Below, in pieces: positions 4,864-64,000 of a stretch of 64,000 bases of DNA (its first letter is position 1; each line of letters opens with the position of its first letter). This DNA comes from Sphaerochaetaceae bacterium (lineage in GTDB: Bacteria > Bacillota > Clostridia > Oscillospirales > CAG-272), in contig CAVKJG010000001.1 of the NCBI GenBank assembly GCA_963656825.1, forward strand, positions 2,059 to 66,058. The letters are read 5' to 3'. The notes beneath the pieces were generated by a model that saw only the letters and a program-made list of their open reading frames with translations, was not told the origin of the DNA and made no database searches. The position numbers and the translations under genes are program-made.

Positions 4864-5562
4864 TTACCCGAAAATCGGAATACGCGTTATAAGCCAGTTC
4901 ATTCCGAAGAAAAGCCTGTCGGCAAGCCAGCCTATCGTGCCGTCGAACACGCCGAGCCACAGCAGCGCAAACATTGCTATCATAATGTATCTTTCGTATT
5001 TCATCACGCCGAAGTAAGCCTTTGTCGGCAGGAAGATAAACGCTACTCTCGAGCCGTCGAGCGGCGGAATGGGCAAAAGATTGAACACAGCAAGATAAAC
5101 GTTCATCTCCGCCATCAGATAAAAGAATGTGCATCCGACAGCAATCACCGTCGCACCGAAGCCCGAATCCGATACGGGTATCAGCGAAAAAAGATTAAAG
5201 AACAGAACGTTCAGAAACGCCAGAATTATGTTTGAAAGCGGTCCTGCGGCGGCTGTTATCGCCATGCCGCTTCTCGGATGCTTGTAATATCTCGGATTTA
5301 CCGGACACGGCTTTGCCCAGCCGAATCCGAAAAGAAGCATGCACAACGCGCCCATGGGATCGAGGTGCTTCAAGGGATTGAGCGTCAGTCTGCCGTAGTT
5401 TCTCGCCGTGTTGTCGCCGAGAAGATACGAGGCGTAGCCGTGTGAAAATTCGTGTACGGTAAGCGATATAAGCACAATCGGAACGACTATAAGAAACGTT
5501 ATAAGAACGTCCCTGAACGTCGCCTGTCCGCTTGTAAGCGCTTTTATTGTCTGTATAAGCAT
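4864..5562 (-). CDS. peptidase M50 / site-2 protease family membrane metalloprotease
   Basis: HEFSHGYA (HExxH) sits in a TM helix of a polytopic membrane protein. Confidence 0.8.
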   Translation of the reverse strand: MLIQTIKALTSGQATFRDVLITFLIVVPIVLISLTVHEFSHGYASYLLGDNTARNYGRLTLNPLKHLDPMGALCMLLFGFGWAKPCPVNPRYYKHPRSGMAITAAAGPLSNIILAFLNVLFFNLFSLIPVSDSGFGATVIAVGCTFFYLMAEMNVYLAVFNLLPIPPLDGSRVAFIFLPTKAYFGVMKYERYIMIAMFALLWLGVFDGTIGWLADRLFFGMNWLITRIPIFG

Positions 5563-5581
5563 TTATTTTTTCCTCCGGAAA

Positions 5582-6187
5582 TTATTTCAGATGCTCCGAT
5601 ATCACGGAGATAACCTCGTCCTTTCCCTCGCCCGTAAGCGATGAAAAGGCGATTACTTTTATTTTCTCCGCCGCCATCGGAGGATTCAGCAGAGGATGCT
5701 CGCAAAGTGCCTCATAATTGCGCTTTCTGTCCGTTTTGTTCAGCTTGTCAGCCTTTGTCGCGACTATCGCATAAGGTATGCCGGACTTATCGAGCCAGTC
5801 GAACATCATGCAGTCGTCGCCCGTCGGACCGACCTTGAGATCGACGAGCTGAAGCACAAGCGACGGTGAGCTTTCGCCCGTAAGATAGCCGTTTGTCAGC
5901 GCCGACCAGACTCTTTTCTCCGATTCCGAGCGTTTTGCGTAGCCGTACCCCGGCAGATCGACAAGGTAGAATTTTTTATCTATATCGTAAAAATTCACTG
6001 TGATCGTCTTTCCCGGCTCGGAGCTTGTTCGCGCAAGCTTTTTTCTTCCGAGAACGGTATTTATAAGCGAGCTTTTCCCGACGTTCGATCGTCCGGACAT
6101 CGCTATCTGCGGTCTGCCGTCGCGCGGAAACTGATTTTCTCTTCCCGCGGAAAGCGCAAACTCCGCTTTTGAAAGGTTGAATTTCAT
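5582..6187 (-). CDS. engB: ribosome biogenesis GTP-binding protein YsxC/EngB
   Basis: G1 motif GRSNVGKSSLIN, DLPGYG, TKADK. It lies downstream of lon, as in Bacillus lonA-ysxC. Confidence 0.92.
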   Translation of the reverse strand: MKFNLSKAEFALSAGRENQFPRDGRPQIAMSGRSNVGKSSLINTVLGRKKLARTSSEPGKTITVNFYDIDKKFYLVDLPGYGYAKRSESEKRVWSALTNGYLTGESSPSLVLQLVDLKVGPTGDDCMMFDWLDKSGIPYAIVATKADKLNKTDRKRNYEALCEHPLLNPPMAAEKIKVIAFSSLTGEGKDEVISVISEHLK

Positions 6188-6203
6188 CGGCGTTCTCCTG
6201 TCC

Positions 6204-8645
6204 TTATTTTGCGGCTTCTATCGCCGCTCCCCTGCCGTGACTTTCCGGCACGGCAATATATTGCTTTTCGCTTTTTTCCCGCGGCAGACTCTTTTTTTCG
6301 TAGGCGAAAGGCTCAGCGCAGAGCGCAAGTCTTGCCGCCTCGTCCGCGTGAGATATGTAGATTATCTCCACATTTTCCTTGACTTCGGGAAGAATTTCTC
6401 CCTCGTCCTTGCGGTTTTCCTCGGGAAGAAGTATCGTCTTTACTCCGGCAAGATATGCAGCCATCGTCTTTTCGCGGAGTCCGCCTATGGCAAGCACTCT
6501 GCCGCGGAGCGTTATCTCGCCCGTCATGGCGATATCGCGCTTCACCGCTATGCCGGTAAGCTCGCTTATCAGCGCCACGGATATCGCAACGCCTGCGGAC
6601 GGGCCGTCCTTCGGAACAGCGCCTTCGGGAAAATGTATATGTATATCTTTCTTTTTGTAAAATTCCGGATCTATTCCGAGTCTTTCCGCGCGCGAACGGA
6701 CAAAGCTTATCGCCGCCTGCGCGGATTCCTTCATAACGTCGCCGAGCATACCGGTAAGCTCCGTTTTGCCCGTGCCTTCAAGCGAAAGCACCTCTATACG
6801 CATTATCTCTCCGCCGAGCTCCGTATATGCCATTCCGCACACCGTCCCGACTTCGTTTTCCGGCAGGATTTTATCCTTTGCCAGCCTTTCCGTGCCGGCG
6901 TAATCGGCAAGATTGCCCTCCGTTATCTTCACGCTCTTTTTCCCGTCGCAGACTATCTCCTTTGCGGCGCGACGACAGCATTTCGCTATCATTCTTTCAA
7001 GCTGACGCACGCCCGCTTCGGAGGTGTATTCGTCTATGAGCGCATAAAGCGCACCTTCGTCGATCTTCATCGTTCTGCCGCTCAGACCGTGACGCTTCGA
7101 CTGCTTTGGAATCAGGTGATGACGCGCTATGGAGAATTTTTCTCCGCGCGTGTATATCTTCATTTCCACTATCTCCATTCTGTCGATAAGCGGCTGAGGA
7201 ACGGTGGAAAGCGAGTTTGCCGTCGTTATGAAAAGACAGTCCGAAAGATCAACCGGCGACTCTATGAAGTGGTCGCGGAAGCTTTTGTTCTGCTCGGTGT
7301 CAAGCACCTCGAGCAGTGCCGACGCCGGATCGCCGTGCGCGTCGCGCGTCAGCTTATCGACCTCGTCCATCAGTATCAGCGGATTCATGCTCTTTGCCTG
7401 AGTGAGCGCGGTTATGATTCTTCCCGGCATCGAGCCTATATACGTCTTTCTGTGACCTCTTATGTCCGCCTCGTCGCGCACGCCGCCCAGAGAAATCCTT
7501 ACGAATTTTCTGTTCATTGCGCGCGCTATCGACGATGCCACCGAGGTTTTGCCCGTTCCGGGAGGTCCGACAAGGCACAGCACCTGATTTTTAAGCTCGG
7601 GATTGAGCTTCTGCGCCGCAAGATATTCCATTATCCTGCTTTTCACGTCGTCAAGCCCGTCGTGATCCTCGTCAAGTATTTTTTTCGCCTGCGGAATGTC
7701 TATTCTGTCCTTTGTCTTTTTGCCGAACGGAATTTCAAGGCAGGTTTCTATATAGTTGCGTATTACTGCGCCCTCAGCTGCTCCGAAAGGCGTTTTTGAA
7801 AGCTTTTTCACTTCTTTTACAAGCTTTTCGCGCATATCCGCGGGAAGCGGCGCTTTCATTACCTTTTCGTAATATTCGGCTACTTCCTCATCGTCGAATT
7901 CTTCATCCTCGCCAAGCTCGCTTTTTATGACCTTAAGCTGCTCGCGCAGATAATAATCGCGCTGATTTTTGTCCATTCTTGAATGAACCTCGCGGTTTAT
8001 CTTCGCCTCCTCGCGCATTACAAGCTTTTCGCTTTCGAGCTTGAGGAGCAGAAGCTCCGCGCGCGACTTGGGATCGAACACTTCGAGCAGCTGCTGACGG
8101 TCGTCAAACTCGGGCAGAATGTTCGCGGCGACAAAGTCGCACAGAAGCGACATATCCCCTATCGAAGCTATCACCGCCGAAAGATCCTTTGAAAATTTCG
8201 GCAAAAGCGATGAAAATTCGGCTACCGTGCTTTTTATGTCGCGCATCATCGCAATGCTCATAACGCCGCCGTCGTCAAAGCTTACGGATTTTTCCAGCGC
8301 TTCGGCAACGAAGTATTTTCCGCTGCGATAAAAATCGGTTATTTCTGCTCTTTCAATCGGCTCGATAAGCGTCCGGTATATTCCGCCGTCGGCTTTTACA
8401 AGCTGTTTTATCTTAGCCGTCACGCCCACGGAATACAGATCCTCCCTTTTCGGTTCTTCAACCGAGGGATCCTTCTGACATACAAGCAAAACAATTCCGT
8501 CCGAAGCGAGCGCCGCGTCGCACGCTTTTTTCGACGCGCTCCTGCCCACTTCGAGATTCATTGCTATTTTGGGGAAAGCGACAGTTCCGCGCATCGCTAT
8601 GCACGGAAGTATCGTTTTCTTTATCATTTCTCTGGTTACAGCCAT
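6204..8645 (-). CDS. lon: ATP-dependent Lon protease (LonA)
   Basis: Walker A GPPGTGKTS, a LonA N-terminal domain, and the catalytic PKDGPSAG serine motif with the downstream Lys region. Confidence 0.97.
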   Translation of the reverse strand: MAVTREMIKKTILPCIAMRGTVAFPKIAMNLEVGRSASKKACDAALASDGIVLLVCQKDPSVEEPKREDLYSVGVTAKIKQLVKADGGIYRTLIEPIERAEITDFYRSGKYFVAEALEKSVSFDDGGVMSIAMMRDIKSTVAEFSSLLPKFSKDLSAVIASIGDMSLLCDFVAANILPEFDDRQQLLEVFDPKSRAELLLLKLESEKLVMREEAKINREVHSRMDKNQRDYYLREQLKVIKSELGEDEEFDDEEVAEYYEKVMKAPLPADMREKLVKEVKKLSKTPFGAAEGAVIRNYIETCLEIPFGKKTKDRIDIPQAKKILDEDHDGLDDVKSRIMEYLAAQKLNPELKNQVLCLVGPPGTGKTSVASSIARAMNRKFVRISLGGVRDEADIRGHRKTYIGSMPGRIITALTQAKSMNPLILMDEVDKLTRDAHGDPASALLEVLDTEQNKSFRDHFIESPVDLSDCLFITTANSLSTVPQPLIDRMEIVEMKIYTRGEKFSIARHHLIPKQSKRHGLSGRTMKIDEGALYALIDEYTSEAGVRQLERMIAKCCRRAAKEIVCDGKKSVKITEGNLADYAGTERLAKDKILPENEVGTVCGMAYTELGGEIMRIEVLSLEGTGKTELTGMLGDVMKESAQAAISFVRSRAERLGIDPEFYKKKDIHIHFPEGAVPKDGPSAGVAISVALISELTGIAVKRDIAMTGEITLRGRVLAIGGLREKTMAAYLAGVKTILLPEENRKDEGEILPEVKENVEIIYISHADEAARLALCAEPFAYEKKSLPREKSEKQYIAVPESHGRGAAIEAAK

Positions 8646-12017: not shown

Positions 12018-13145
12018 ATGGCTGATTATTATATCGATTCACTCACCGGTCTTGACGAAAACGACGGCAAAAGTCCGTCCTCTCCGCTTCCGTCGCACAC
12101 GGGCATTTCACTTTTGCCGGGCGACACCGTATATTTCCGCCGCGGAAGCGAATATCGCTGCGGAATTTTTTCTCCGAGCGGGGAAAGGGACAAGCCGATA
12201 ACCTTCAAGACCTACGGAGAAGGTCCCGCGCCGAAATTTTTCGGCTCGAAAAACTGCTCCGGCGGATGGCTCTGGGAAGAAACCGGAAAAAACATCTACC
12301 GCCTGAGAATGCCGCTTGCAAGCGAGCCGGGAAATATCGTTTTCGGATTCGGAAAAAGCTTCGGCACGCTCGTGTGGAGCAAAAGCGACCTTGACGAAAA
12401 CGGAAAATGGTGGTTTTCGGCATACGGCTGTCAGAAAAGCGTTCCGCAGGGCGCGGAGCTTTATCTGTATTCGGAGGGAAATCCGTCCGATGTGTTCGGC
12501 GATATAGAAATCGCGCTTTTCGGAAACCGCTGTCTTGCCTCGGGAAAAAGCTTTGTCCGCTTTGAAGGACTGCATTTTCTCTGCTCGGGACTTCACGGCT
12601 ACGCGCAGACAAAGCCGTCGGATATCGGAATTTCCGACTGCCGCTTTGACTTCATCGGCGGCTGCGTATGGAACGAAAAACGGAAAATACGCTACGGAAA
12701 CGCCGTTGAATTCTGGAACGGCGCGGAAAACTGCACAATCGAAAACTGTGAATTTCTCGAAATCTACGATTCGTGCTTTACGACTCAGGGCGGAGCGGAC
12801 TGCGGCGATTTTGAAAACATCGTTTTCAGAAGCAACACAATGTATAACTACGGCTTTGCGGCGTATGAAATACGCGACAGGATCGGCAAAAACGTTTCGT
12901 TTGAGTTCAACGTCTGCGACGGAGCGGGGCTCGGCTTTTCGTCACAGCACGAGGGCGGAACAAGAACCTCCGAAATATATCCCGAGCCTGTCGGAAGTCA
13001 CATCTTCGCGTGGCGGATAGAAAAGCCGACCGACAGCGGAAAAATACGCATAATGAGCAACGTCTTCCGCGGCACGCCGAAGGGCGATGTGTTCACGAAA
13101 AGAATAGCTCCGTCCGCGCTCGCGCAGATACAGACGGACTTTTAA
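12018..13145 (+). CDS. right-handed parallel beta-helix repeat protein, unknown function
   Basis: ATG 12018 follows an AAAAAGGAG RBS. The upstream GTG at 11976 falls inside the promoter. The N-terminus (DGKSPSSPL...PGDTVYFRRGSEY) is typical of beta-helix (pectate-lyase-fold) proteins. No signal peptide. Confidence 0.6.
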   Translation: MADYYIDSLTGLDENDGKSPSSPLPSHTGISLLPGDTVYFRRGSEYRCGIFSPSGERDKPITFKTYGEGPAPKFFGSKNCSGGWLWEETGKNIYRLRMPLASEPGNIVFGFGKSFGTLVWSKSDLDENGKWWFSAYGCQKSVPQGAELYLYSEGNPSDVFGDIEIALFGNRCLASGKSFVRFEGLHFLCSGLHGYAQTKPSDIGISDCRFDFIGGCVWNEKRKIRYGNAVEFWNGAENCTIENCEFLEIYDSCFTTQGGADCGDFENIVFRSNTMYNYGFAAYEIRDRIGKNVSFEFNVCDGAGLGFSSQHEGGTRTSEIYPEPVGSHIFAWRIEKPTDSGKIRIMSNVFRGTPKGDVFTKRIAPSALAQIQTDF

Positions 13146-13161
13146 TACACAAGTATAAAAT
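13144..13161. repeat. TTATAC-N4-GTATAA dyad, copy a (AATACacaaGTATAAAAT)
   Basis: It overlaps the stop codon of the beta-helix gene and runs into the terminator stem. One core mismatch. Confidence 0.7.
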
Positions 13162-13205
13162 CGGAAATTCCGTATTGCCGCTGTGAATTTCCGATTTTTT
13201 GTTTT
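13158..13205 (+). terminator. rho-independent terminator after the beta-helix gene
   Basis: A 13-bp stem AAATCGGAAATTC / GAATTTCCGATTT followed by a T-run. Confidence 0.8.
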
Positions 13206-13240
13206 GATTTTATTTTTTTCGCGGAAAGTATTGAAAAGTG

Positions 13241-13269
13241 TTGAAAAGCGCTGTTTTGCGTGATATACT
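13241..13269 (+). promoter_or_regulatory. sigma-A promoter of pfp (TTGAAA-N17-TGaTATACT)
   Basis: -35 at 13241-13246 (a tandem TTGAAAAG repeat also starts at 13231) and -10 at 13264-13269. Confidence 0.6.
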
Positions 13270-13309
13270 TATCCTGTAAATTTTGTTTTGACGAAAGGAT
13301 AAAACTGTT

Positions 13310-14539
13310 ATGAACAAACTCTACGGCAATGCTGTAATAGGTCAGTCCGGCGGTCCGACCGCGGCTATAAATGCTACGCTTTCGGGCGTTGTGCGCGGCT
13401 GTAAAAACGCAGACTGCATAGGAAAAATATACGGCGCGATAAACGGCGTCGAAGGCGTTCTTGCCGAGCGCTTCTGCGATCTCGGAGAAAGGCTTCCGGA
13501 CGAAAAATCGCTTGAGCTTCTCGAGCAGACTCCCGCCGCCGCTCTCGGCTCGTGCAGAAAAAAGCTTCCCAAGCCCGAGGACGATCCCGCAACGTTTGAA
13601 AAGCTCGTTGAGATTTTCAGAAAATACGATATCCGCTATTTCTTTTACATCGGCGGAAACGACTCGATGGATACCGTCGCAAAGCTTTCGCGCTACTGCG
13701 CTTCTGTCGGCTTCGATATGCGCGTTATGGGCGTACCGAAAACAATAGACAACGACCTTGCCGGCACAGACCATACGCCCGGCTTCGGCTCCGCCGCAAA
13801 ATATATCGCAACCGTAACGCAGGAAGTCCTGCTCGATACGGCGGTCTACACGGTGAAAGCCGTCACGATAATAGAAATAATGGGGCGCGACGCGGGATGG
13901 CTCACCGCCGCAGCGGCGCTTCCCTCGCTTTCGGGCATCGCTCCCGACCTTGTGTATCTGCCCGAAGTCCCCTTTGACTACGAAAAGTTCTATGAGGATA
14001 TTGCCGCGGCGTTTGAAAAGCACCCGAACGTTGTCGTTGCGGTTTCGGAGGGTGCGCGCACCGCGGACGGAACATACGTCGGCGAAGGCGCTCAGAGCGG
14101 TGCGGTCGATGTTTTCGGTCACAAATATCTTTCCGGCACGGGAAAAGCGCTTGAGCTTACCGTAAAGGAAAAATTCGGCTGTAAGGTGCGCTCGATCGAG
14201 CTAAACCTGCCGCAGAGATGCGCGGCTCACATCCGCTCGAAAACCGACATCGATGAATCCGTTATGATCGGCAAAGCCGCCGCGGATTATGCGGTAAACG
14301 GCGAAACCGGCAAAATGGCGTGCTTTGCAAGAATGTCATCCGAACCTTACAAATGCGAAGCCGGACTTTGCGATATCGCCTCCGTTGCGAACGCCGTCAG
14401 AAGCGTGCCGAGAGAATTTATCAATGCGCGCGGAAACGGCGTCACCGAGGAATGTGTAAAATACATCGCTCCGCTTATAATGGGCGAGGCTGAATGCACC
14501 TACAAAAACGGACTTCCCGATTTTATAACCCTCAAATAA
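13310..14539 (+). CDS. pfp: 6-phosphofructokinase, probably PPi-dependent (diphosphate--fructose-6-phosphate 1-phosphotransferase)
   Basis: GQSGGPTAAINA, GGNDS and MGRDAGW motifs. PKTIDND carries Lys where ATP-PFKs have Gly. Confidence 0.85.
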   Translation: MNKLYGNAVIGQSGGPTAAINATLSGVVRGCKNADCIGKIYGAINGVEGVLAERFCDLGERLPDEKSLELLEQTPAAALGSCRKKLPKPEDDPATFEKLVEIFRKYDIRYFFYIGGNDSMDTVAKLSRYCASVGFDMRVMGVPKTIDNDLAGTDHTPGFGSAAKYIATVTQEVLLDTAVYTVKAVTIIEIMGRDAGWLTAAAALPSLSGIAPDLVYLPEVPFDYEKFYEDIAAAFEKHPNVVVAVSEGARTADGTYVGEGAQSGAVDVFGHKYLSGTGKALELTVKEKFGCKVRSIELNLPQRCAAHIRSKTDIDESVMIGKAAADYAVNGETGKMACFARMSSEPYKCEAGLCDIASVANAVRSVPREFINARGNGVTEECVKYIAPLIMGEAECTYKNGLPDFITLK

Positions 14540-54880: not shown

Positions 54881-55761
54881 ACTCCCGTATAATCGAAATC
54901 GGGAATAAAGCTTTCCGCGGCGGCGCTTCCCTCCTGAACGTAGGCTGTCGAAATTCCTATCTTATCGGCATAATCTACAATCTTTGAATATTCGTATTTT
55001 GTCAGCTTCCGGCAAAGCTCCGGATAATTTTCAAGGCGCTTTTTGTCCGGCGTGAACTGACTCATTATGCTGAGAATAATATCGTTTCCGTATTCGGAAT
55101 GAAGATAATCCATTACGCGCAGCGAATCGGAAACGCACCCGGGCAAAGCAAGATGCCGCACTATAACGCCTTTTTTCATAAGACCGTCACAAAGCACGGG
55201 CGCACCCTTTGTACGCACCATTTCGGCAAGCGCCTCCTTTGCCCTTTCGGGATAATCTCCCGCCGCCGAATATTTTCCGGCAAGCTCTCCCGACATATAT
55301 TTGAAATCCGTAAGATAAATATCGACCGTTTTGTCAAGCGAAACTATCGTTTCGGCTTTTTCGTATCCGCCGGTGTTCCATACAACAGGCAAGCCGAGTC
55401 CCTTCGCCTTCGCTTCGGCAACGACGCGCTTTATCTGCGGCGAAAAATGCGTCGGCGTAACGAGATTTATATTGTTTGCTCCCTGCGCTTTAAGCTCAAA
55501 GAATATCTCGCAAAGACGCTCATCGCTTACTTCTTTTCCAAGCTCGCCGCGTGAGATTCCGTAATTCTGACAGTACACGCACCGCAGATTGCAGCCCGAA
55601 AAAAACACCGTTCCCGAGCCTTTTTCGCCGGATATGCACGGCTCCTCCCAGAAGTGAAGCGCCGCGCGCGCAAGGCGGACGGTATTTTTCTCGCCGCAAA
55701 AGCCCTTGCCCGTATTTCTGTCGATTCCGCATCCGCGCGGACAGATATCGCATTTTTCCAT
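54877..55761 (-). CDS. radical SAM protein, PflX-like (putative glycyl-radical-activating-enzyme-like)
   Basis: An N-terminal Cys cluster (CDICPRGC) and the CNLRCVYCQN radical SAM motif. Confidence 0.8.
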   Translation of the reverse strand: MEKCDICPRGCGIDRNTGKGFCGEKNTVRLARAALHFWEEPCISGEKGSGTVFFSGCNLRCVYCQNYGISRGELGKEVSDERLCEIFFELKAQGANNINLVTPTHFSPQIKRVVAEAKAKGLGLPVVWNTGGYEKAETIVSLDKTVDIYLTDFKYMSGELAGKYSAAGDYPERAKEALAEMVRTKGAPVLCDGLMKKGVIVRHLALPGCVSDSLRVMDYLHSEYGNDIILSIMSQFTPDKKRLENYPELCRKLTKYEYSKIVDYADKIGISTAYVQEGSAAAESFIPDFDYTGV

Positions 55762-55826
55762 ATAACAATCAAGTCCTTTTGAATTTTTGTAAGCTTTACT
55801 GCGGCTCTGACGTCCTGCGTGCGACT

Positions 55827-55855
55827 ATTATATCACACAGCTCCGGCTTTATCAA
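55827..55855 (-). promoter_or_regulatory. sigma-A promoter of the radical SAM gene (TTGATA-N17-TGTGTGaTATAAT)
   Basis: -10 at 55827-55832 with a TG-rich extension, and -35 at 55850-55855. Confidence 0.65.
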
Positions 55856-56121
55856 TGAAATATTTACCTGATGTCCCGAGAAAATTTTCCGCGACGCTCT
55901 CGCATACTCCGCTTGCGGCAATGTTTCTTCCTTATTTATTGATATACATAGGGCTTATAAAACGCCTGAAATGAGAAAATCGGAAGACGGTTTTCCGGCT
56001 TCGGATTGCCCGAAAAGCTGTTTTTGCGGTCATGAGATGTGCATTTGTGTCATTTTTCAAAGCAGAAATGGCATAAATGCCGTGAAACCTGCCAAAATGC
56101 CGAAAAAATTTGCCGAAACGG

Positions 56122-56150
56122 TTGACAAGCCGAAATTTATGTGCTACATT
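56122..56150 (+). promoter_or_regulatory. sigma-A promoter of the opp-like operon (TTGACA-N17-TACATT)
   Basis: Hexamers at 56122-56127 and 56145-56150. The leader to ATG 56266 is about 110 nt. Confidence 0.6.
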
Positions 56151-56265
56151 TAATTAAATACTTGCGTAATTTTTTGCCTGCATTACGGTTTCTTTTATTT
56201 TCGGAAACTGCCGCGGCAAAAAAAGCAGCGGATATTGAAAAAATACTATGCAATGGAGGAAAACA

Positions 56266-58827
56266 ATGAAAAAGAAACTCAAACAAATGCTGACGGCAGC
56301 ATTGTGTCTGGTACTTGTGGCAGCTACGTTCATGGGCTGCGGCAAAAAGACTCCCGACGTTGTGCCCGCTACATTCAAGCAGGCTGAATACAACACCACA
56401 ACAGCTACAATGCCCAGCAACTGGAACATGCTCACGTACGTTGACAACAACGATACCCAGATTATGAACTATATTTCTTCTTCGTTCTTTGAATATGACT
56501 ACAAATTTGAGAACGACAAGAAGTACAACGAGGACGGTTCCATCAACAAAGCCGGCATAGTTGCCGGTGCGTACACCACAAACTACTCCGCAGCAACAAA
56601 GCTCGAAGACGTAACATCTTCGGTTGATGCAAAATGGGGCTACACCGACGCTCAGAAGAAAGAGGGCGGCTATGCATGGAAGATCACCTTCCGTGACGAC
56701 CTCAAATGGGACGACGGAACAGCCATCAAGGGCGCAGACTTTGAATATTCCATGAAGCAGCAGCTCGATCCCGCTTTCATGAACTACAGAGCCAACACCT
56801 ACTACGATACGCTTAAGATCAAAAACGCAAAGACCTACTTCTTCCAGAACCAGGAAGGAACCTACGAAACCGTAGGCAGCCTTGGTTATGAAAACAACGC
56901 GGCTGCAATCGCAGACGGCAAAACCATCTACATCGACGTTCACGGCTTCTGGGGTGCTGAAGGCTATGTTGACAAAGACGGCAACGAATGTCCTCAGTGG
57001 GTCAGCATCAACGACGAAACCGTTTACGATACCGCAGACGCATGGACAGCAGGCGCTGCAGCAGACGCTTTCTCCGGTAAAGAGCTGTGGGCAGCTTACG
57101 GCGCTTATCTCGAAGTCGGCGCAAACTATGCAAGCTATGCCGGTATTTACGTTGAGAACAAGGTCCGCAGCGTGAAGTGGGAAGACGTAGGCATTTACGC
57201 CGTTGACGGCGAAAACGCTATCGTTGTCTGCATGGACAAAGCGTTCGCTTTCCTTAAAGAAGACGGTTCTCTCTCTTATCTCGCAGCATACTATATGTCC
57301 AGCCTTCCCCTCGTTCACGAGGCTAAGTACGAAGCTTCAAAGATCGCTCCCGCAAACGGCGCGACTCTCTGGACATCAAATTACAACTCTTCTCTCGCCA
57401 CAACGGCAAGCTGGGGTCCCTACAAGCTCTCCGAGTTTGAAGCAGGCTCTCACTACAAGCTCGTAAAGAACGAAAACTGGTACGGCTGGGGCATGGAAGA
57501 TTTCAAGAACCAGTACAACATCACCGCCATCAACTGCCGCAAGGTTGAAGAATGGGCGACAAGATGGATGGGCTTCCTTAACGGCGACTACGACGACGCT
57601 TCTCTTGCAACCGAGAACGCAGCCGAATATGTAGACTCCAAGTACGTTTACTACACATCCACCGATACCGGCACATTCGGTATGCAGCTTTACAGCAACC
57701 TCAGCGTTCTTAAAAACAGCAAAAACAACAACGGTATTCTTGCAATACCCGAATTCAGACAGGCATTCAACCTTGCGCTCAACAGAAGCGACATCGTTGA
57801 AAAAATCTGGCCCGGCACGGCTATCCCCTGCTTCGGTCTTGTAAACGTTGCTTACTACTATGATATCGAAAACGCTCCTACCCTTGAGGACGGCGGTCAG
57901 TACCGTAACACAACGCAGGCAAAAGAGGGTGTCCTCCGCGCTTACGGATTTACTCAGGGCGCAGACGGCAAGTGGACATCGGGCGACCTCAAGAATCTTG
58001 ATCTTGACGAAGCATACGATTCTCTCACAGGCTACAACCCCACTCTCGCAAAAGAGAGAATGGCAGCCGCTATCGAAGAGCTTACAAAGAACGCCGAAAC
58101 ATACGGCTACGACGCAACAAAGAACATCACTCTTGTTTACGGTTCTTCCGTAGATAACGACAAACAGAGATTCAGAGCAAACTACCTCCAGGACATTCTC
58201 GATGATCTTACAAAGGGAACGGCTCTTGAAGACAAGATTGACGTTGTATTCGACGCATCCGCAGGCTCGAAGTGGTCCGACGCGTTCAGAAGCGGCGAAA
58301 CTCAGATCGGTTTCGGTTACGGCTTCTCCGGCAACGCATTCAACCCCTTTGACATTATCGGCGCATTCGTTAACCCCGACGACAGTCTGAACTACCATAT
58401 GTACTGGGATACTTCCGCTATCGATCTGACTCTCACAATGCCCGCAGGCGACTATGATGGCGCAGGCGAGACAATCACAATGAGCGTTCAGAACTGGTAC
58501 TTCTGCCTGAACGGTCTTGCAGAGAGCGAAGGCGCTGCAAAGACTTACAACTGGGACGCAGGCTACGCTCCCGTTGAAGCAAGACTTATGATCCTCTCCG
58601 CTCTTGAAGAGCTTACAATCAAGGAAAGCCGTTCCGTAATGCTTATCGCATCCTCCGGCGGTTCTTTCCTCGGCGCTAAATTCTCTTACTTCTCCGATGT
58701 TGAAAACGTGTTCATGGGCTTCGGCGGTATCAGATATATGGAAGTCAACTATACTGACGCCGAATGGACAGAATATGTTAAATCTCAGAACAACAACCTT
58801 GAAAGCGAGTACAAGAAGTCCGAGTAA
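56266..58827 (+). CDS. ABC transporter substrate-binding lipoprotein, family 5 (Opp/Dpp-like), unusually large (853 aa)
   Basis: GGAGGA RBS then ATG 56266. Lipobox FMGCG. SBP_bac_5-like pattern with extra segments. Confidence 0.8.
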   Translation: MKKKLKQMLTAALCLVLVAATFMGCGKKTPDVVPATFKQAEYNTTTATMPSNWNMLTYVDNNDTQIMNYISSSFFEYDYKFENDKKYNEDGSINKAGIVAGAYTTNYSAATKLEDVTSSVDAKWGYTDAQKKEGGYAWKITFRDDLKWDDGTAIKGADFEYSMKQQLDPAFMNYRANTYYDTLKIKNAKTYFFQNQEGTYETVGSLGYENNAAAIADGKTIYIDVHGFWGAEGYVDKDGNECPQWVSINDETVYDTADAWTAGAAADAFSGKELWAAYGAYLEVGANYASYAGIYVENKVRSVKWEDVGIYAVDGENAIVVCMDKAFAFLKEDGSLSYLAAYYMSSLPLVHEAKYEASKIAPANGATLWTSNYNSSLATTASWGPYKLSEFEAGSHYKLVKNENWYGWGMEDFKNQYNITAINCRKVEEWATRWMGFLNGDYDDASLATENAAEYVDSKYVYYTSTDTGTFGMQLYSNLSVLKNSKNNNGILAIPEFRQAFNLALNRSDIVEKIWPGTAIPCFGLVNVAYYYDIENAPTLEDGGQYRNTTQAKEGVLRAYGFTQGADGKWTSGDLKNLDLDEAYDSLTGYNPTLAKERMAAAIEELTKNAETYGYDATKNITLVYGSSVDNDKQRFRANYLQDILDDLTKGTALEDKIDVVFDASAGSKWSDAFRSGETQIGFGYGFSGNAFNPFDIIGAFVNPDDSLNYHMYWDTSAIDLTLTMPAGDYDGAGETITMSVQNWYFCLNGLAESEGAAKTYNWDAGYAPVEARLMILSALEELTIKESRSVMLIASSGGSFLGAKFSYFSDVENVFMGFGGIRYMEVNYTDAEWTEYVKSQNNNLESEYKKSE

Positions 58828-58881
58828 TTTCTGTCATGGCTGATAAATACATCCCGAACAGGACTGTATAATTTTGAAAAA

Positions 58882-58914
58882 TCGGCGGTGAGTCAAGTGC
58901 TCACCGCTGATTTG
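58882..58914 (+). terminator. stem-loop (partial terminator / mRNA stabiliser) after the SBP gene
   Basis: TCGGCGGTGAG-tcaagtg-CTCACCGCTGA then TTTG, a weak U-tract. Confidence 0.5.
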
Positions 58915-59139
58915 CATATTTACGGCTTGTCGGCAAACCCCGCAAATCCTCATAAAAATGAATTTTTAACTCTGTTCGCGGCAGAATCTGCGCCGAAACA
59001 GGCGAAATTCCGGCTGAAAATTTCATTTTTATATCATGCGCTTTCAGAGCGCACACAGAGCGCTGTGTACGATTGTACATATCCCGAAGCTCTGAAAGCC
59101 ATAAAATCGGGGAACAACAAAACAGAGGAGAAAAAATCC

Positions 59140-60147
59140 ATGTACATGTTCAAATACGTTATGAAGCGGTTGGGCTTGATGCTCTTCACATTTTTAATTA
59201 TCTTTACAATGTGTTTTGTGCTTATCAAGCTTCTGCCGATTCCTACAAATGTTCTTCCGGGGCAGGATCCGGAGATCATTATGAAGACACTTGAGGGAAG
59301 AGGTTGGATCACCAACATTCAAAAGGGTGAAAACGGCGTTTATTCCTACGACCGTGTTCCGATACTGTTCCAGTACGGAAATTATATCAAGAGAGTGATC
59401 ACAAAGGGTGACTTCGGTATTGCAACCACCTACGGCGAGTATCTCAATATGAATCTGCGCGAGGTGTTTCTCAGTCACCTTCCCCCCACAATCCTTATAA
59501 ATATTTATTCCACACTTATCGGCGTGCCGATCGGACTTGCCCTCGGCATTCTGGCTGCGCTGAAAAAGAACAAATGGCAGGATCAGCTGATAAACGTCTT
59601 CATTATTTTGCTTATATCTGTTCCTTCCGTCGTGCTGGCTCTTATGATTCAGTATGTATTCTGCTTCAAGCTCGGCTGGTTCCCGCTGACCATGTCAACA
59701 AGTAAAGCGTACTTTACGGCTCCGGTATTTCATTCGATGCTTCCCGCAGTATTTTCGCTGTGCCTCGGCTCGATTGCCGGATACGCACGTTATACGCGCG
59801 CCGAGCTTTCCGAGGTTCTGACAGGCGAATTTATGCTGCTTGCAAGAACAAAGGGACTTACCAAGCGTCAGGCGATATTCCGCCACGCGATGCGCAACTC
59901 CATGGTAGTTATCTTCCCGTCAATTCTTAGCGAATTCGTATCGGTTCTTTCCGGATCGCTTATTATTGAAAAAATGTTCGGCATCAACGGCGTCGGCGGA
60001 CTGTACCTTAACTCTATCACGTTTCAGGATTACGATTTCTTCATGCTGCTGTCCGGTTTCTATACCCTTGTCAGTCTGACGGCGGGTATCGTTATTGACA
60101 TCAGCTACGGTTTCATCGATCCGAGAATCAGAATGGGAGCGAAATAA
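59140..60147 (+). CDS. ABC transporter permease (OppB/DppB-like)
   Basis: MFKYVMKRLGLMLFTFLIIF N-terminus and the EAA-loop region LARTKGLTKRQAIFRHAMRNS. ATG 59140 follows GAGGAG. Confidence 0.88.
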   Translation: MYMFKYVMKRLGLMLFTFLIIFTMCFVLIKLLPIPTNVLPGQDPEIIMKTLEGRGWITNIQKGENGVYSYDRVPILFQYGNYIKRVITKGDFGIATTYGEYLNMNLREVFLSHLPPTILINIYSTLIGVPIGLALGILAALKKNKWQDQLINVFIILLISVPSVVLALMIQYVFCFKLGWFPLTMSTSKAYFTAPVFHSMLPAVFSLCLGSIAGYARYTRAELSEVLTGEFMLLARTKGLTKRQAIFRHAMRNSMVVIFPSILSEFVSVLSGSLIIEKMFGINGVGGLYLNSITFQDYDFFMLLSGFYTLVSLTAGIVIDISYGFIDPRIRMGAK

Positions 60148-60148
60148 A

Positions 60149-61741
60149 ATGGCAACGAATAATGTAAATAATATCGCGAATATTCCTGCGGACAAGTTCA
60201 GATTTGCAACCGGAAGGGATCTCAAGCACGACAGCAAGTTTGACACAAAGCCCGTAAGCTATTTTCAGGGTGCGCTGAAACGCTTCAGCAAAAACAAGGG
60301 CGCGGTCGTCGGAGGCATCGTAATAGCCGTTCTTGCGCTTTTTGCAATCATTGCGCCGTTTTTCACGCCCTTCACTCCGGCATACTACGACATGGTTTAT
60401 GCTTATGTCACTCCCAAATCTCAGCTTTTTGTGGACAGCGGTCTTGATTTCTGGGACGGCTGCAAAACAAAAAACACCAATTACCTCGGCTTTATCAAGG
60501 ATAAGGCTATCGCTGTCGAAACAGGCAGAGAGGTCATTAAGCGCGACGAATACACCGTAAGTGAGGACGGCGCAAATTATTCCTATCGCTACAACACCTA
60601 TTACGGAGTAGGCTTCGGCAAATATAAAATAATTTCTCAAGAAGAATTCGACAACATTCAGAAATATCAGCTTGAAACGGGCAGACAGGTTCTTTATCCG
60701 ATAGTCAAATTCTCCGACAGACCTACGCTTGAAAAGAACAAATACGACGCAAACATCTATTACAAAATGGAGGATCCGAATGCGTCAGTTGTCCGCCCCA
60801 AGCTCGACTACGAGGGAAATATTATCCCGAATTACTGGAAATACGAGAAAAGCTCGGCATCAGGTCTGATACCGGAGTACAACTCTCTCAGAATCGAAGG
60901 CGAGGACGGCATAAAGGAAAACGGCTCCACCTATTACTATGCATACGGCAGAAGAGTAGACGGCGGCATTGAAGTCAGAGCCGAATACTATGAATATTAT
61001 ATCTACAATCACACTCAGATAAAGAAAGACGGCATAGAAGAACCTTTCTTCTTTTTCGGCACGACCGACACCGGCAAGGATATCTTTGCCTGCCTTGCAT
61101 ACGGCGCAAGATTTTCGTTTGTTTTTGCCACAATCGTTGCGGCGGTAAACTTCATTGTCGGCGTTATCTGGGGTTCCATCTCCGGATATTTCGGCGGGAG
61201 AGTCGATCTTCTCATGGAGAGATTTTCCGATATCCTCGGCGCAGTTCCCACGATGATCGTCATTACCCTTCTGAAATATCATATGGGAGCGTCAAGTCAG
61301 GCGCTTGTTCTGTTTATCGCGTTCTTTGCGACGGGGTGGATAGGTATGGCAAGCAGGACGCGTATGCAGTTCTACCGCTTTAAGAATCAGGAATATGTTC
61401 TTGCGGCAAGAACGCTCGGCGCAGGCAATCTGAGAATAATGTTCAAGCACATTTTCCCGAACGGTCTCGGCACGATAGTAACAAGCGTCGCGCTTGTAAT
61501 CCCCTCGATGATCTACTCGGAAACAAACCTTTCCTACCTCGGAATCATCAATCTTGAAGCAGGAAACACAACCAGCGTGGGAACGCTTATTGCCGCAGGT
61601 CAGAAGTCCATTATGGCAGGCGCAGGCTATGTGGCGCTGTTCCCGTGCACGTTCCTTGTTCTGTTGATGCTCAGCTTTAACCTGTTCGGCAACGGCTTGC
61701 GCGATGCGCTGAATCCGTCGCTCAGAGGCTCGGAGGATTGA
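60149..61741 (+). CDS. ABC transporter permease (OppC/DppC-like) with a roughly 225-aa extracytoplasmic insertion after TM1
   Basis: The OppC_N-like start, FGTTDTGKDIF, and the EAA loop AARTLGAGNLRIMFKHIFPN. ATG 60149. Confidence 0.88.
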   Translation: MATNNVNNIANIPADKFRFATGRDLKHDSKFDTKPVSYFQGALKRFSKNKGAVVGGIVIAVLALFAIIAPFFTPFTPAYYDMVYAYVTPKSQLFVDSGLDFWDGCKTKNTNYLGFIKDKAIAVETGREVIKRDEYTVSEDGANYSYRYNTYYGVGFGKYKIISQEEFDNIQKYQLETGRQVLYPIVKFSDRPTLEKNKYDANIYYKMEDPNASVVRPKLDYEGNIIPNYWKYEKSSASGLIPEYNSLRIEGEDGIKENGSTYYYAYGRRVDGGIEVRAEYYEYYIYNHTQIKKDGIEEPFFFFGTTDTGKDIFACLAYGARFSFVFATIVAAVNFIVGVIWGSISGYFGGRVDLLMERFSDILGAVPTMIVITLLKYHMGASSQALVLFIAFFATGWIGMASRTRMQFYRFKNQEYVLAARTLGAGNLRIMFKHIFPNGLGTIVTSVALVIPSMIYSETNLSYLGIINLEAGNTTSVGTLIAAGQKSIMAGAGYVALFPCTFLVLLMLSFNLFGNGLRDALNPSLRGSED

Positions 61742-61743
61742 AT

Positions 61744-63987
61744 ATGAATAAAGAAATTAAGTTATCGGTAAACAATCTGAAGGTCAGCTTCCGGACGGAC
61801 GCAGGCAAGGTGCAGGCGGTACGCGATATCTCGTTCGACCTTTATAAAGGCGAAACTCTGGCAATCGTCGGAGAATCCGGCTCTGGAAAATCCGTTACGT
61901 CAAAAGCCATCATGGGAATTTCCGCTGTGAACTCCATCTACGAGGGCGGAGAAATCCTTTACGACGGTCAGGACCTTCTGCGTATTCCCGAGGAGGAAAT
62001 GCACAAGCTCCGCGGAGACAAGATCGCAATGATTTTCCAGGATCCGCTTTCCTCGCTCAACCCGATTATGCGTATCGGCAAGCAGATAACGGAGGCAATG
62101 CTCCTCAAAAACAAGGCGAACCGCAAGGAAGGCCGCGAAGCCTTCAACAAAATGCTTTCCACGCTGTATGAAACAATAAAGGTAGCTGCCGCAGAAAACA
62201 ATATCACGGATATCTCCATAGAAGAGGTTGAAAAATACATCAAGACCTTCGATGATTTCAACATTCAGGCGATAAAGCTGGAAAACAGCTACAACGAATC
62301 GCGCACGGCGGCTGAGGAAATGATAACCATCATTGAGGATTTTCTCTTCCTTACCGAAAAAAAGCAAAAGGTCGATGTCGTAGCGACCTTAAAGCGCATC
62401 AAAAATCACCTGAAAACTGTCAGCGACAAGTATTTTGTAACCGGATATGAGGAAATTTTGAAGGCTCACAGCGCGTCGCTTGACAGCGCAAAATCGATAG
62501 AAATATCAAAGCTGACAATAGGTGACGCCGCAAAGAAGCTGTTTGCGGGAAACGCGTACAAAAACGAAGCGTCTGCCGAAACAGTCGATGTACTCAAAAA
62601 GATAAAGAAAACAGCCGAAGAAATGCTCGCACGTCCCAAGTACGACTTTTTCAGAATCGGCTACTACGTATACAAGCACCCCGATACCGATCTCAGCCGG
62701 ATGCCCGCTTCCGAAGCGAACGAAATGGCATACGAATATCTCACAGAGGACTTTATGAAGTCCTTTATCGGCTATGAAAGGATCGCGGTTCAGTATTCGC
62801 TCGATAAAACTCTGGAAAACAAGAAAAAGGCTATCGCCGGACTGAAAAAGGCAATAGAATTTTTCAGGGCGGGAAACTTTACCCAGCAGGAAGCAAAGGC
62901 ACTTGCCTATGAGCTGAATCGGGATGTCCGCGCGGCAATCGATCCGCTTGCCGTAGTCAAGGACAACATCGCCTACACCTTCGGCGGAGCGATTGACAGA
63001 GAAATTGAAAAATATTTCTTCTACCTGAAAAACAATCCCAAGGAGGAGGCTCGCTTTGCGCGTCAGACCGCAAAAAGAGAGGCTCTGCTTGCAAAGGGCA
63101 AGAGCGGAAAGAAAGTAAACTGGAAAGTCGTTCCGAAGTCCGTTGTGGAGCCGGAGGATCAGATCCGTATCATCGTTTCCGTTCTTACGCATGTAATGGA
63201 CAAGTTTGAAGCGGACGTTTTATCCGAAAACAAGGTGGACGTCGATAAGCGCTGCATTGATATCATCGACTATCTCAAGGAAAAGGCTTCTCAGGTTGTC
63301 TACAAGCTTACAAAGCGTATCGCAAAGGAAAGAGCCATCAAGCTCATGGACGAGGTCGGTATTCCCGAAGCAAGACTTCGCTACAGACAGTATCCGTTTG
63401 AGTTTTCCGGCGGTATGCGTCAGCGTATCGTTATCGCGATCGCGCTTTCGGCAAACCCCGATATCCTGATCTGCGACGAGCCGACCACCGCGCTTGACGT
63501 TACGATTCAGGCTCAGATTCTTGAGCTTATCAACCGTCTGAAGCGCGAGCGTAATCTTTCCATTATCTTTATCACGCACGATCTGGGCGTGGTCGCAAAC
63601 ATGGCAGACAGAATTGCCGTTATGTATGCAGGTAAAATCGTGGAATACGGCACCGCGGAAGAGGTGTTCTACAATCCGCAGCATCCGTATACATGGGCAT
63701 TGCTTTCCTCCATGCCGGACCTCGACACCGACGAAAAGCTGGATGCTATCCCGGGAACTCCTCCCAATATGATATATCCTCCCGTCGGAGATGCGTTTGC
63801 GGAAAGAAACAGATACGCACTGGAAATAGATTATGAAATGCAGCCTCCGATGTTTGAGGTTTCGCCCACACACTACGCTGCAACATGGCTGCTTCACCCC
63901 AATGCTCCCAAGGTAGAGATTCCGAAAATCATTACCGAGCGAATCAAACGAATGAAGGAAAGAGGAGGCAATTATGGAGAACAATAA
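61744..63987 (+). CDS. ABC transporter ATP-binding protein (OppD-like) with a roughly 400-aa insertion between the Q-loop and the ABC signature
   Basis: Walker A GESGSGKSV, Q-loop IFQDPLSSLNP, then about 430 residues later FSGGMRQR, Walker B LICDEPTTALD, H-loop ITHDL, and an oligo_HPY-like tail. ATG 61744 follows GGAGGA. Confidence 0.88.
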   Translation: MNKEIKLSVNNLKVSFRTDAGKVQAVRDISFDLYKGETLAIVGESGSGKSVTSKAIMGISAVNSIYEGGEILYDGQDLLRIPEEEMHKLRGDKIAMIFQDPLSSLNPIMRIGKQITEAMLLKNKANRKEGREAFNKMLSTLYETIKVAAAENNITDISIEEVEKYIKTFDDFNIQAIKLENSYNESRTAAEEMITIIEDFLFLTEKKQKVDVVATLKRIKNHLKTVSDKYFVTGYEEILKAHSASLDSAKSIEISKLTIGDAAKKLFAGNAYKNEASAETVDVLKKIKKTAEEMLARPKYDFFRIGYYVYKHPDTDLSRMPASEANEMAYEYLTEDFMKSFIGYERIAVQYSLDKTLENKKKAIAGLKKAIEFFRAGNFTQQEAKALAYELNRDVRAAIDPLAVVKDNIAYTFGGAIDREIEKYFFYLKNNPKEEARFARQTAKREALLAKGKSGKKVNWKVVPKSVVEPEDQIRIIVSVLTHVMDKFEADVLSENKVDVDKRCIDIIDYLKEKASQVVYKLTKRIAKERAIKLMDEVGIPEARLRYRQYPFEFSGGMRQRIVIAIALSANPDILICDEPTTALDVTIQAQILELINRLKRERNLSIIFITHDLGVVANMADRIAVMYAGKIVEYGTAEEVFYNPQHPYTWALLSSMPDLDTDEKLDAIPGTPPNMIYPPVGDAFAERNRYALEIDYEMQPPMFEVSPTHYAATWLLHPNAPKVEIPKIITERIKRMKERGGNYGEQ

Positions 63988-64000
63988 CGAAGTGCTTCTT
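63974..64000 (+). CDS. 5' end of the next CDS (probably the OppF-like ATPase), truncated by the window edge
   Basis: GGAGG RBS at 63963-63967, ATG 63974 (MENNNEVLL), and an overlap with the oppD-like stop codon. Confidence 0.45.

Follow-up and report, generated by a model that had tools for sequence, protein, structure and literature searches.

A 64,000-nucleotide (nt) stretch of contig CAVKJG010000001.1, referred to here as the window, carries at its 3' end four tightly packed, co-directional genes on the + strand that encode components of an oligopeptide permease (Opp)-type ATP-binding cassette (ABC) importer, three of which are considerably larger than usual. Genes were called from the six-frame list of open reading frames (ORFs) of the window, and domains were identified by Pfam and NCBIfam profile scans. 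The first gene (56266..58827, +) encodes a family-5 (cluster C type) substrate-binding protein (SBP) of 853 amino acids (aa), a lipoprotein supported by its ORF, a ribosome-binding site (RBS) and a match to PF00496. It is followed on the same strand by the genes for the permeases OppB (335 aa; 59140..60147, with AGAGGAG ahead of the ATG at 59140) and OppC (530 aa; 60149..61741, with OppC_N and BPD_transp_1 domains) and for the ATPase OppD (747 aa; 61744..63987, with ABC_tran and oligo_HPY domains). The gene of the second ATPase, OppF, overlaps the end of oppD and is cut by the window end after its first nine codons (MENNNEVLL; 63975..64000, +), so that the operon does not close at 64000, where an earlier annotation made from the letters and ORFs alone (the sequence-only reading) had let it end; since this start is identical to that of OppF in the closest public locus, the operon continues past the window end. 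Judged by its gene content, the operon comprises six genes, SBP-OppB-OppC-OppD-OppF-DUF3899, and the window holds its 5' four-fifths, the rest of OppF and the DUF3899 gene being placed beyond the end by comparison with relatives. The predicted product is a binding-protein-dependent type I ABC importer of the Opp/Dpp (PepT, TC 3.A.1.5) family, with the following hallmarks of this family present: a family-5 SBP, two differing BPD_transp_1 permeases and two canonical ATPases, OppF being judged in the related locus L001. Across the window genes the Pfam domains are SBP_bac_5, BPD_transp_1 (twice), OppC_N, ABC_tran and oligo_HPY, and no second Opp-type SBP or permease gene was found elsewhere in the 64 kb.

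The SBP is about 1.5 times as long as usual (family-5 SBPs in the PDB have 490-564 aa), OppC about 1.75 times (302 aa in Escherichia coli OppC, 300 aa in DppC) and OppD about 2.2 times (336 aa in E. coli OppD, 327 aa in DppD), while OppB has near normal size when compared with the NCBIfam profile of 306 positions; the corresponding profiles of OppC, OppD and OppF have 302, 318 and 334 positions. The sequence-only reading had pointed out these four sizes correctly, but its statement that every component is enlarged goes too far, as it applies to SBP, OppC and OppD, whereas OppB is normal and OppF, as read in L001, exceeds the usual length by only about 90-100 aa. Its proposal of extra extracellular and cytoplasmic modules is borne out by alignment and Pfam mapping, which resolve the additional length into discrete insertions.

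The largest of these insertions lies in OppD. All motifs of the ATPase are intact in the translation (Walker A GESGSGKS, Q-loop FQDP, signature SGGMRQR, Walker B ILICDEP, H-loop THD), and the protein matches PF00005 with 99.7 bits and PF08352 with 51.2 bits. Mycobacterium tuberculosis OppD residues 5-116 align to window OppD aa 7-119 and residues 123-317 to aa 522-714 (E = 2e-116), which leaves an insertion of about 400 aa at aa 120-521 (62101..63306, +) that is predicted to be all-alpha. It is placed in the alpha-helical subdomain, between the post-Q-loop helix (...FQDPLSSLNPIMRIGKQITEAM) and the following helix (LTKRIAKERAIKLMDEVGI). An AlphaFold2 (AF2) model of the insert from an alignment of 34 sequences reached a predicted local distance difference test score (pLDDT) of 85 and a predicted template modelling score (pTM) of 0.70, and is all-alpha, with 13 helices, the longest of 55 residues. 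A Foldseek comparison of this model with the PDB gave nothing below E = 0.1 and TM-scores of 0.10-0.22, a profile of 16 diverse OppD inserts searched against PDB sequences retrieved only designed helical bundles (E >= 0.046), the isolated insert matched no Pfam or NCBIfam family, tblastn against 72,556 plasmids gave no match, and an exact-sequence look-up of window OppD found no record. In a phmmer search of 1.84 billion representative proteins only 144 matched the insert; in the full-length matches (about 600-900 aa) that cover its start, the insert begins near residue 118. In nearly all full-length relatives the core of the nucleotide-binding domain (NBD) is 71-80% identical and the insert 20-34%, with the insert length kept at 345-409 aa. 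The ratio of nonsynonymous to synonymous substitutions (dN/dS; Nei-Gojobori, against the closest loci) is 0.08-0.16 in the insert, compared with 0.012-0.022 in the core, values which are approximate because dS is near saturation. The insert is under purifying selection, and its kept length, its fold and its dN/dS mark it as a maintained, folded, fast-evolving module. As its rate of evolution is about tenfold that of the core and purifying selection still acts on it, it is unlikely to be catalytic, and the pattern suggests a scaffold or interaction domain rather than an enzyme.

Behind the insert, OppD keeps the C-terminal oligo_HPY domain. In the C-terminal domains of E. coli DppD and DppF and of M. 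tuberculosis OppD, four cysteines coordinate a [4Fe-4S] cluster (PMC12136057). These four cysteines are missing from both ATPases of the system described here, with no Cys in OppD aa 633-747 and a single one in the C-terminus of L001 OppF. The oligo_HPY region (63640-63984 in the window, and the C-terminus of L001 OppF) nevertheless contains a stretch that is highly conserved in the family, PGTPPNMIxPPxGDAFAxRNxYA...THxAATWLLHP.

The second insertion is found in OppC, in which OppC_N (PF12911) covers aa 37-82 (55.6 bits against a cut-off of 23.9) and BPD_transp_1 (PF00528) aa 338-526 (81 bits). E. coli OppC residues 16-71 align to window OppC aa 29-86 and residues 81-300 to aa 300-524 (E = 1e-45), and from the PDB alignment and a hydropathy scan the intervening part, aa 78-299 (about 220 aa; 60380..61045, +), is predicted to be an extracytoplasmic loop between transmembrane segments TM1 and TM2. 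This insert is tyrosine-rich (Y/W/F = 17%), is strongly conserved within the clade of the window and, taken in isolation, matches no Pfam or NCBIfam family; its AF2 model was unusable (pLDDT 45). The partner permease OppB matches PF00528 with 124 bits and has Opp3B as its best NCBIfam match (207 bits, under the cut-off of 480). Its ORF extends up to a GTG at 58888, while the RBS-supported start is 59140.

In the SBP, a GGAGG stands 8 nt ahead of the ATG at 56266; the ORF reaches six codons further upstream to an ATG at 56248, and the GGAGG spacing favours 56266 and thus the protein of 853 aa. The N-terminus, MKKKLKQMLTAALCLVLVAATFMGC, reads as a lipoprotein signal peptide with a lipobox-like ...TFMGC. 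The match to PF00496 (93.1 bits against a cut-off of 32.4) is split, with aa 130-193 aligning to profile positions 11-76 and aa 370-698 to positions 105-357, which delimits an insertion of about 175 aa at aa 194-369 in addition to a longer N-terminus and smaller expansions. The isolated insert matches no Pfam or NCBIfam family, and the best PDB sequence matches of the protein are weak (PrgZ, 3e-6; AccA, 2e-5).

The components that lie beyond the window end were read in relatives. OppF of L001 has 415 aa (12231-13478), starts identically to window OppF, and matches PF00005 with 112.5 bits and PF08352 with 36.8 bits; its additional length corresponds to a charged helical insert of about 100 aa at aa ~84-186, and the insert region (aa 101-200) gave no family match and no detected homology to the OppF insert of mollicutes. 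The DUF3899 gene then follows on the same strand (L001 13499-13921); it encodes a protein of 131-140 aa with four predicted TM segments and matches PF13038 with 40.9 bits in L001 and 44.3 bits in the sister-clade locus L082 (threshold 23.4). It stands directly 3' of OppF in 78 of 78 loci, the sister clade included, so that its presence in the genome of the window, beyond the window end, can be inferred, and DUF3899 is probably a sixth subunit or an accessory of the transporter.

The architecture is not restricted to the genome of the window. One genome per species was scanned, and 80 loci (L001-L080) of at least 341 candidate relatives were obtained from Oscillospiraceae, Faecousia, 'Eubacteriales' metagenome-assembled genomes (MAGs) and Ruminococcus sp. 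CAG:382. In an ORF and BLAST survey of these loci, gene order and sizes are alike in all 80 as far as the contigs allow, with 839-906 aa for the SBP, 334-342 for OppB, 527-573 for OppC, 720-747 for OppD and mostly 397-424 for OppF, which contains the insert of about 100 aa. The closest loci belong to Oscillospiraceae and Eubacteriales MAGs and to Ruminococcus sp. CAG:382, in agreement with the Clostridia-type genome that the sequence-only reading had assumed. Among protein clusters, the best 120 clusters of OppD homologues are 78-94% identical and all 742-752 aa long, OppC homologues at 81-92% identity have 521-530 aa, and many metagenome clusters are large (e.g., P0468 with 1825 members and P0284 with 257). 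OppF is the most length-variable subunit in the 80 loci (352-482 aa), and in a few loci each, OppC reaches 541-573 aa and the SBP about 904-906 aa; this scatter suggests ongoing evolution of the accessory regions by insertions and deletions.

A sister clade (P0160 family) shares the design at larger distance. Its OppD is 49% identical, with about 25% identity in the insert, its OppC (44% identical) and its SBP (835 aa, 30% identical) each align end to end with the window protein, inserts included, and its sizes are 832-835 aa for the SBP (L082 and L083), 319-326 for OppB, 512-514 for OppC, 722-734 for OppD and 816-820 for OppF, with DUF3899 present. These sizes and end-to-end alignments show that the enlarged design is ancient, co-inherited and not confined to the window genome. 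The window architecture is an uncharacterised variant of Opp which is standard in gut Oscillospiraceae and in the sister clade, rather than an oddity of one genome. The sequence-only reading had proposed a survey of homologue lengths as the test of its view, with lengths that are the norm of a subfamily of already characterised domains speaking against it; the lengths are indeed the norm (80 of 80 loci and the sister clade), whereas the domains are not already characterised, with no match in Pfam, NCBIfam or the PDB.

Two features of the sister clade deserve separate mention. In L081 the SBP was called at 617 aa (5482-7335) and aligns only from window SBP residue 215, which probably reflects a mis-called start or a truncated gene and not a short variant. 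OppF of this clade (816-820 aa; L081 12166-14616, L082 12166-14628, L083 10878-13328) carries an N-terminal extension of about 395 aa ahead of the NBD, predicted to consist of two TM segments (aa ~3-36 and aa ~345-388) with a hydrophilic domain of about 310 aa between them. This extension is absent from the clade of the window, has no Pfam or NCBIfam match and shows no similarity to the OppD insert by BLASTP; it is unusual for the NBD of an importer to bring a membrane anchor and an ectodomain of its own.

With respect to the core machinery, the solved Opp/Dpp importers (E. coli OppBCDF, 8Z21; E. coli DppABCDF, 8Z1V-8Z1Z; M. tuberculosis OppABCD, 8J5Q) follow the same five-component logic and contain the same Pfam domains. 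The differences lie in the additions: a helical domain of 400 aa between positions that correspond to 116 and 123 of M. tuberculosis OppD, a domain of 220 aa where the TM1-TM2 loop of E. coli OppC has about 10 residues, an SBP that is about 300 aa longer than in canonical Opp/Dpp systems, the extra DUF3899 gene seen in relatives and the lack of the [4Fe-4S] cysteines. In the E. coli Dpp importer (DppABCDF), the permease DppB is paired with the ATPase DppD, and DppC with DppF. The two permeases differ in their periplasmic TM1-TM2 parts, which contact the SBP, and that of DppB forms a 'scoop motif' reaching into the cleft of the SBP (PMC12136057). The TldR-associated oppA-oppBCDF operon of Enterococcus faecalis V583 likewise includes a DUF3899 gene, of about 100 aa (bioRxiv 10.64898/2026.09.22.753285), which there is antisense to the opp operon, while it has the same strand as OppF in the loci surveyed here.

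For the OppD insert, a topological parallel exists outside the transporters. Several ABC ATPases contain partner-binding insertions between the half with Walker A and Q-loop and the half with signature and Walker B, such as the coiled coils of SMC and Rad50, the insertion domains of UvrA and the arm of ABC-F proteins. The OppD insert has the same topological position, although these proteins are not transporters, and because this position is shared, Pfam alignments of OppD to SMC_N and AAA_21 bridge the insert. The SMC_N score of 22.6 bits lies below the cut-off of 40 and thus does not place OppD among SMC, RecF or RecN proteins. Moreover, the SMC-type arm is one long antiparallel coiled coil, whereas the OppD insert is predicted as 13 helices with no structural match.

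Taken together, we favour, with reasonable though far from complete confidence, the explanation that the operon encodes an enlarged, lineage-specific Opp importer with accessory modules. We infer its core mechanism from family membership, and the substrate and the roles of the modules are likewise proposed here, not observed. The lipoprotein SBP would capture the substrate, most probably oligopeptides, and would dock on the OppB/OppC heterodimer, and the OppD/OppF heterodimer with its two canonical ATP sites would drive translocation; oligopeptides are taken as the default substrate because of the affinities of the translocator to oligopeptide models. The TM1-TM2 domain of OppC would be placed on the outer face beside the corresponding loop of OppB, which is the scoop motif in E. 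coli DppB, and would most likely enlarge the docking platform for the SBP of 853 aa. The OppD insert is expected to project from the helical subdomain, which rotates when ATP binds and accommodates the coupling helix, and would most likely be an arm that serves regulation or the binding of a partner, or else a brace for the structure; by emerging from this subdomain, it would be in a position to influence coupling or to bring in a cytoplasmic partner. The OppF insert of about 100 aa and DUF3899 may be further conserved accessories. The extracellular modules (SBP, OppC) and the cytoplasmic module (OppD) lie on opposite sides of the membrane, so that the mutual contact considered in the sequence-only reading is topologically impossible and coupling between them could occur only through the membrane domains.

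Several points weigh against this explanation or parts of it. Characterised family-5 proteins resemble the SBP only distantly (best PDB E = 3e-6), and an Rfam scan that covered the leader and the spacer between SBP and OppB (55500-59300) revealed no riboswitch, no T-box and nothing at E <= 1 that would give a clue to the substrate. The docking role of the OppC domain is a conjecture, because the fold of the insert could not be predicted, and the AF2 model of OppD represents the isolated insert and gives no direction of projection within the complex. The rapid divergence of the OppD insert would equally fit a structural appendage that is merely tolerated, and the neighbouring genes are housekeeping genes that are not conserved between the clades.

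The alternative that survives best keeps the same translocator and changes the cargo: the system might import oligosaccharides, glycopeptides or muropeptides, opines or metal chelates, ligand classes for which family-5 systems are known, or else unusually long peptides. We regard this as possible but clearly less probable than the importer of oligopeptides outlined above. It draws on the SBP, which is oversized, very divergent and only marginally similar to any characterised family-5 protein, whose matches are divided between the peptide binder PrgZ and the sugar-phosphodiester binder AccA, and whose best NCBIfam match is a nickel SBP with 26 bits against a cut-off of 600; the aromatic content of the OppC insert (17%) would also resemble that of many glycan-binding surfaces. 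However, the permeases and ATPases score best on the oligopeptide models Opp3B, Opp3C, OppD and OppF, neither clade has a glycoside hydrolase, peptidase or metal-related gene as a constant neighbour, and the Rfam scan of the same region found no metal or cofactor riboswitch.

A relationship to the mollicute Opp system (NCBIfam MMSYN1_0165-0168, JCVI-syn/Mycoplasma mycoides), in which both ATPases are likewise enlarged by internal insertions, was raised by the sequence-only reading and can be followed through the models. The best NCBIfam match of OppD is MMSYN1_0167 with 470 bits (cut-off 740; enteric OppD 368), that of L001 OppF is MMSYN1_0168 with 418 bits (cut-off 800; enteric OppF 321), the C-terminal halves alone also favour the mollicute models (380 versus 234 for OppD, 348 versus 264 for OppF), and so do nine of the nine full-length distant relatives that gave a match. 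On MMSYN1_0168, L001 OppF aa 5-83 align to positions 1-78 and aa 187-221 to positions 395-429, so that its insert falls between positions 78 and 395 of the profile, before the Q-loop, at the site of the insert in mollicute OppF. From this it could be argued that the window system is the orthologue of mollicute Opp and that the inserts are the same ancestral modules, derived from a common Firmicute ancestor. We consider this doubtful, since all scores on the mollicute models lie far under the equivalog cut-offs and NCBIfam perhaps simply holds few other Firmicute OppD and OppF models. Window OppD aligns to MMSYN1_0167 in three fragments (aa 7-75 to positions 2-70, aa 84-123 to 298-337, aa 521-738 to 338-556), which shows that the mollicute insert (profile 70-298) precedes the Q-loop, whereas the window insert (337/338) follows the post-Q-loop helix. 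The mollicute OppD insert is also shorter (about 230 aa versus about 400 aa) and shows no detectable similarity, and the window insert alone matches no NCBIfam model at E <= 1, the mollicute models included. OppB and OppC score better on the Staphylococcus aureus Opp3 models than on the mollicute models, which remain under their cut-offs (182 versus 370 for OppC, 110 versus 350 for OppB), and the pattern of permease enlargement is opposite: the mollicute OppC model has 307 positions without an insert and the mollicute OppB model is enlarged to 388 positions, whereas here OppC is enlarged and OppB is not. The likeness thus holds for the best-scoring ATPase models and the OppF insert site and fails for the level of the scores, the OppD site, insert homology and the permeases; it is partial, and the sparse NCBIfam coverage of Firmicute OppD and OppF may inflate the preference for these models. 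Literature searches on OppD/OppF insertions or structures in mollicutes returned nothing relevant.

A more far-reaching proposal, which we put forward as speculative and rather improbable, is that the inserts jointly (the OppC ectodomain, the SBP, DUF3899, the OppD arm and, in the sister clade, the OppF with two TM segments and an ectodomain of about 310 aa) build a larger machine with added function. Such a machine might take up large or modified substrates, for instance long peptides or glycopeptides, or might couple transport to a cytoplasmic partner or signal via a new regulatory domain embedded in the NBD, and it would possibly be related to the giant Opp ATPases of mollicutes; if this were true, the system would be common in abundant gut Clostridia.

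That the additional residues stem from an artefact or from selfish DNA, i.e., an ORF fusion by assembly or frameshift error, an intein or a mobile insertion, as the unusual lengths alone might suggest, is extremely improbable, since 80 independent assemblies and the sister clade have uninterrupted ORFs of the same lengths, the inserts contain no Pfam intein, endonuclease or transposase domain, and an insert dN/dS of about 0.1-0.15, a confident fold and even GC content all speak against it. For these reasons an intein, a mobile element and an ORF-fusion artefact were rejected as candidates.

Returning to the enlarged importer with accessory modules, Opp systems are the main routes of peptide uptake and peptide sensing in Firmicutes. 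To our knowledge, all solved Opp examples have compact subunits. The architecture described here adds three or four sizeable domains without a described family. It is conserved in the sister clade as well as in many gut Oscillospiraceae that have not been cultured, and some of its metagenome clusters hold hundreds to thousands of sequences. Embedded as it is in the helical subdomain, a folded domain of 400 aa would give unusual access to the coupling machinery of an importer NBD, and it offers a point of comparison for the long-unexplained enlargement of OppD and OppF in mycoplasmas. The clean domain boundaries that are now defined can be used for structural and genetic work. The architecture does not by itself establish a new principle, and its relevance lies mainly in the structure and mechanism of ABC transporters and in the physiology of the gut microbiome.

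The remaining features concern the surroundings and the possible expression of the operon. The neighbouring genes in the window are of housekeeping type (xseA-like, ispA-like, radical-SAM), those of the sister-clade operon are S6/S18 and uvrB, and the GC content is even across the operon region. A consensus scan found a promoter-like sequence, TTGACA-17 nt-TACATT with an extended TG, about 115 nt 5' of the SBP start (56122..56150, +); as such sites are no commoner in this region than in shuffled sequence, it is a candidate only. SBP and OppB are separated by an intergenic gap of 312 nt (58828-59139), which contains a G+C-rich hairpin, GCGGTGAGTCAAGTGCTCACCGC (58885..58907, +), and a second palindrome near 59046-59070. 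The hairpin may act as a partial terminator or attenuator that gives an excess of the SBP over the translocator.

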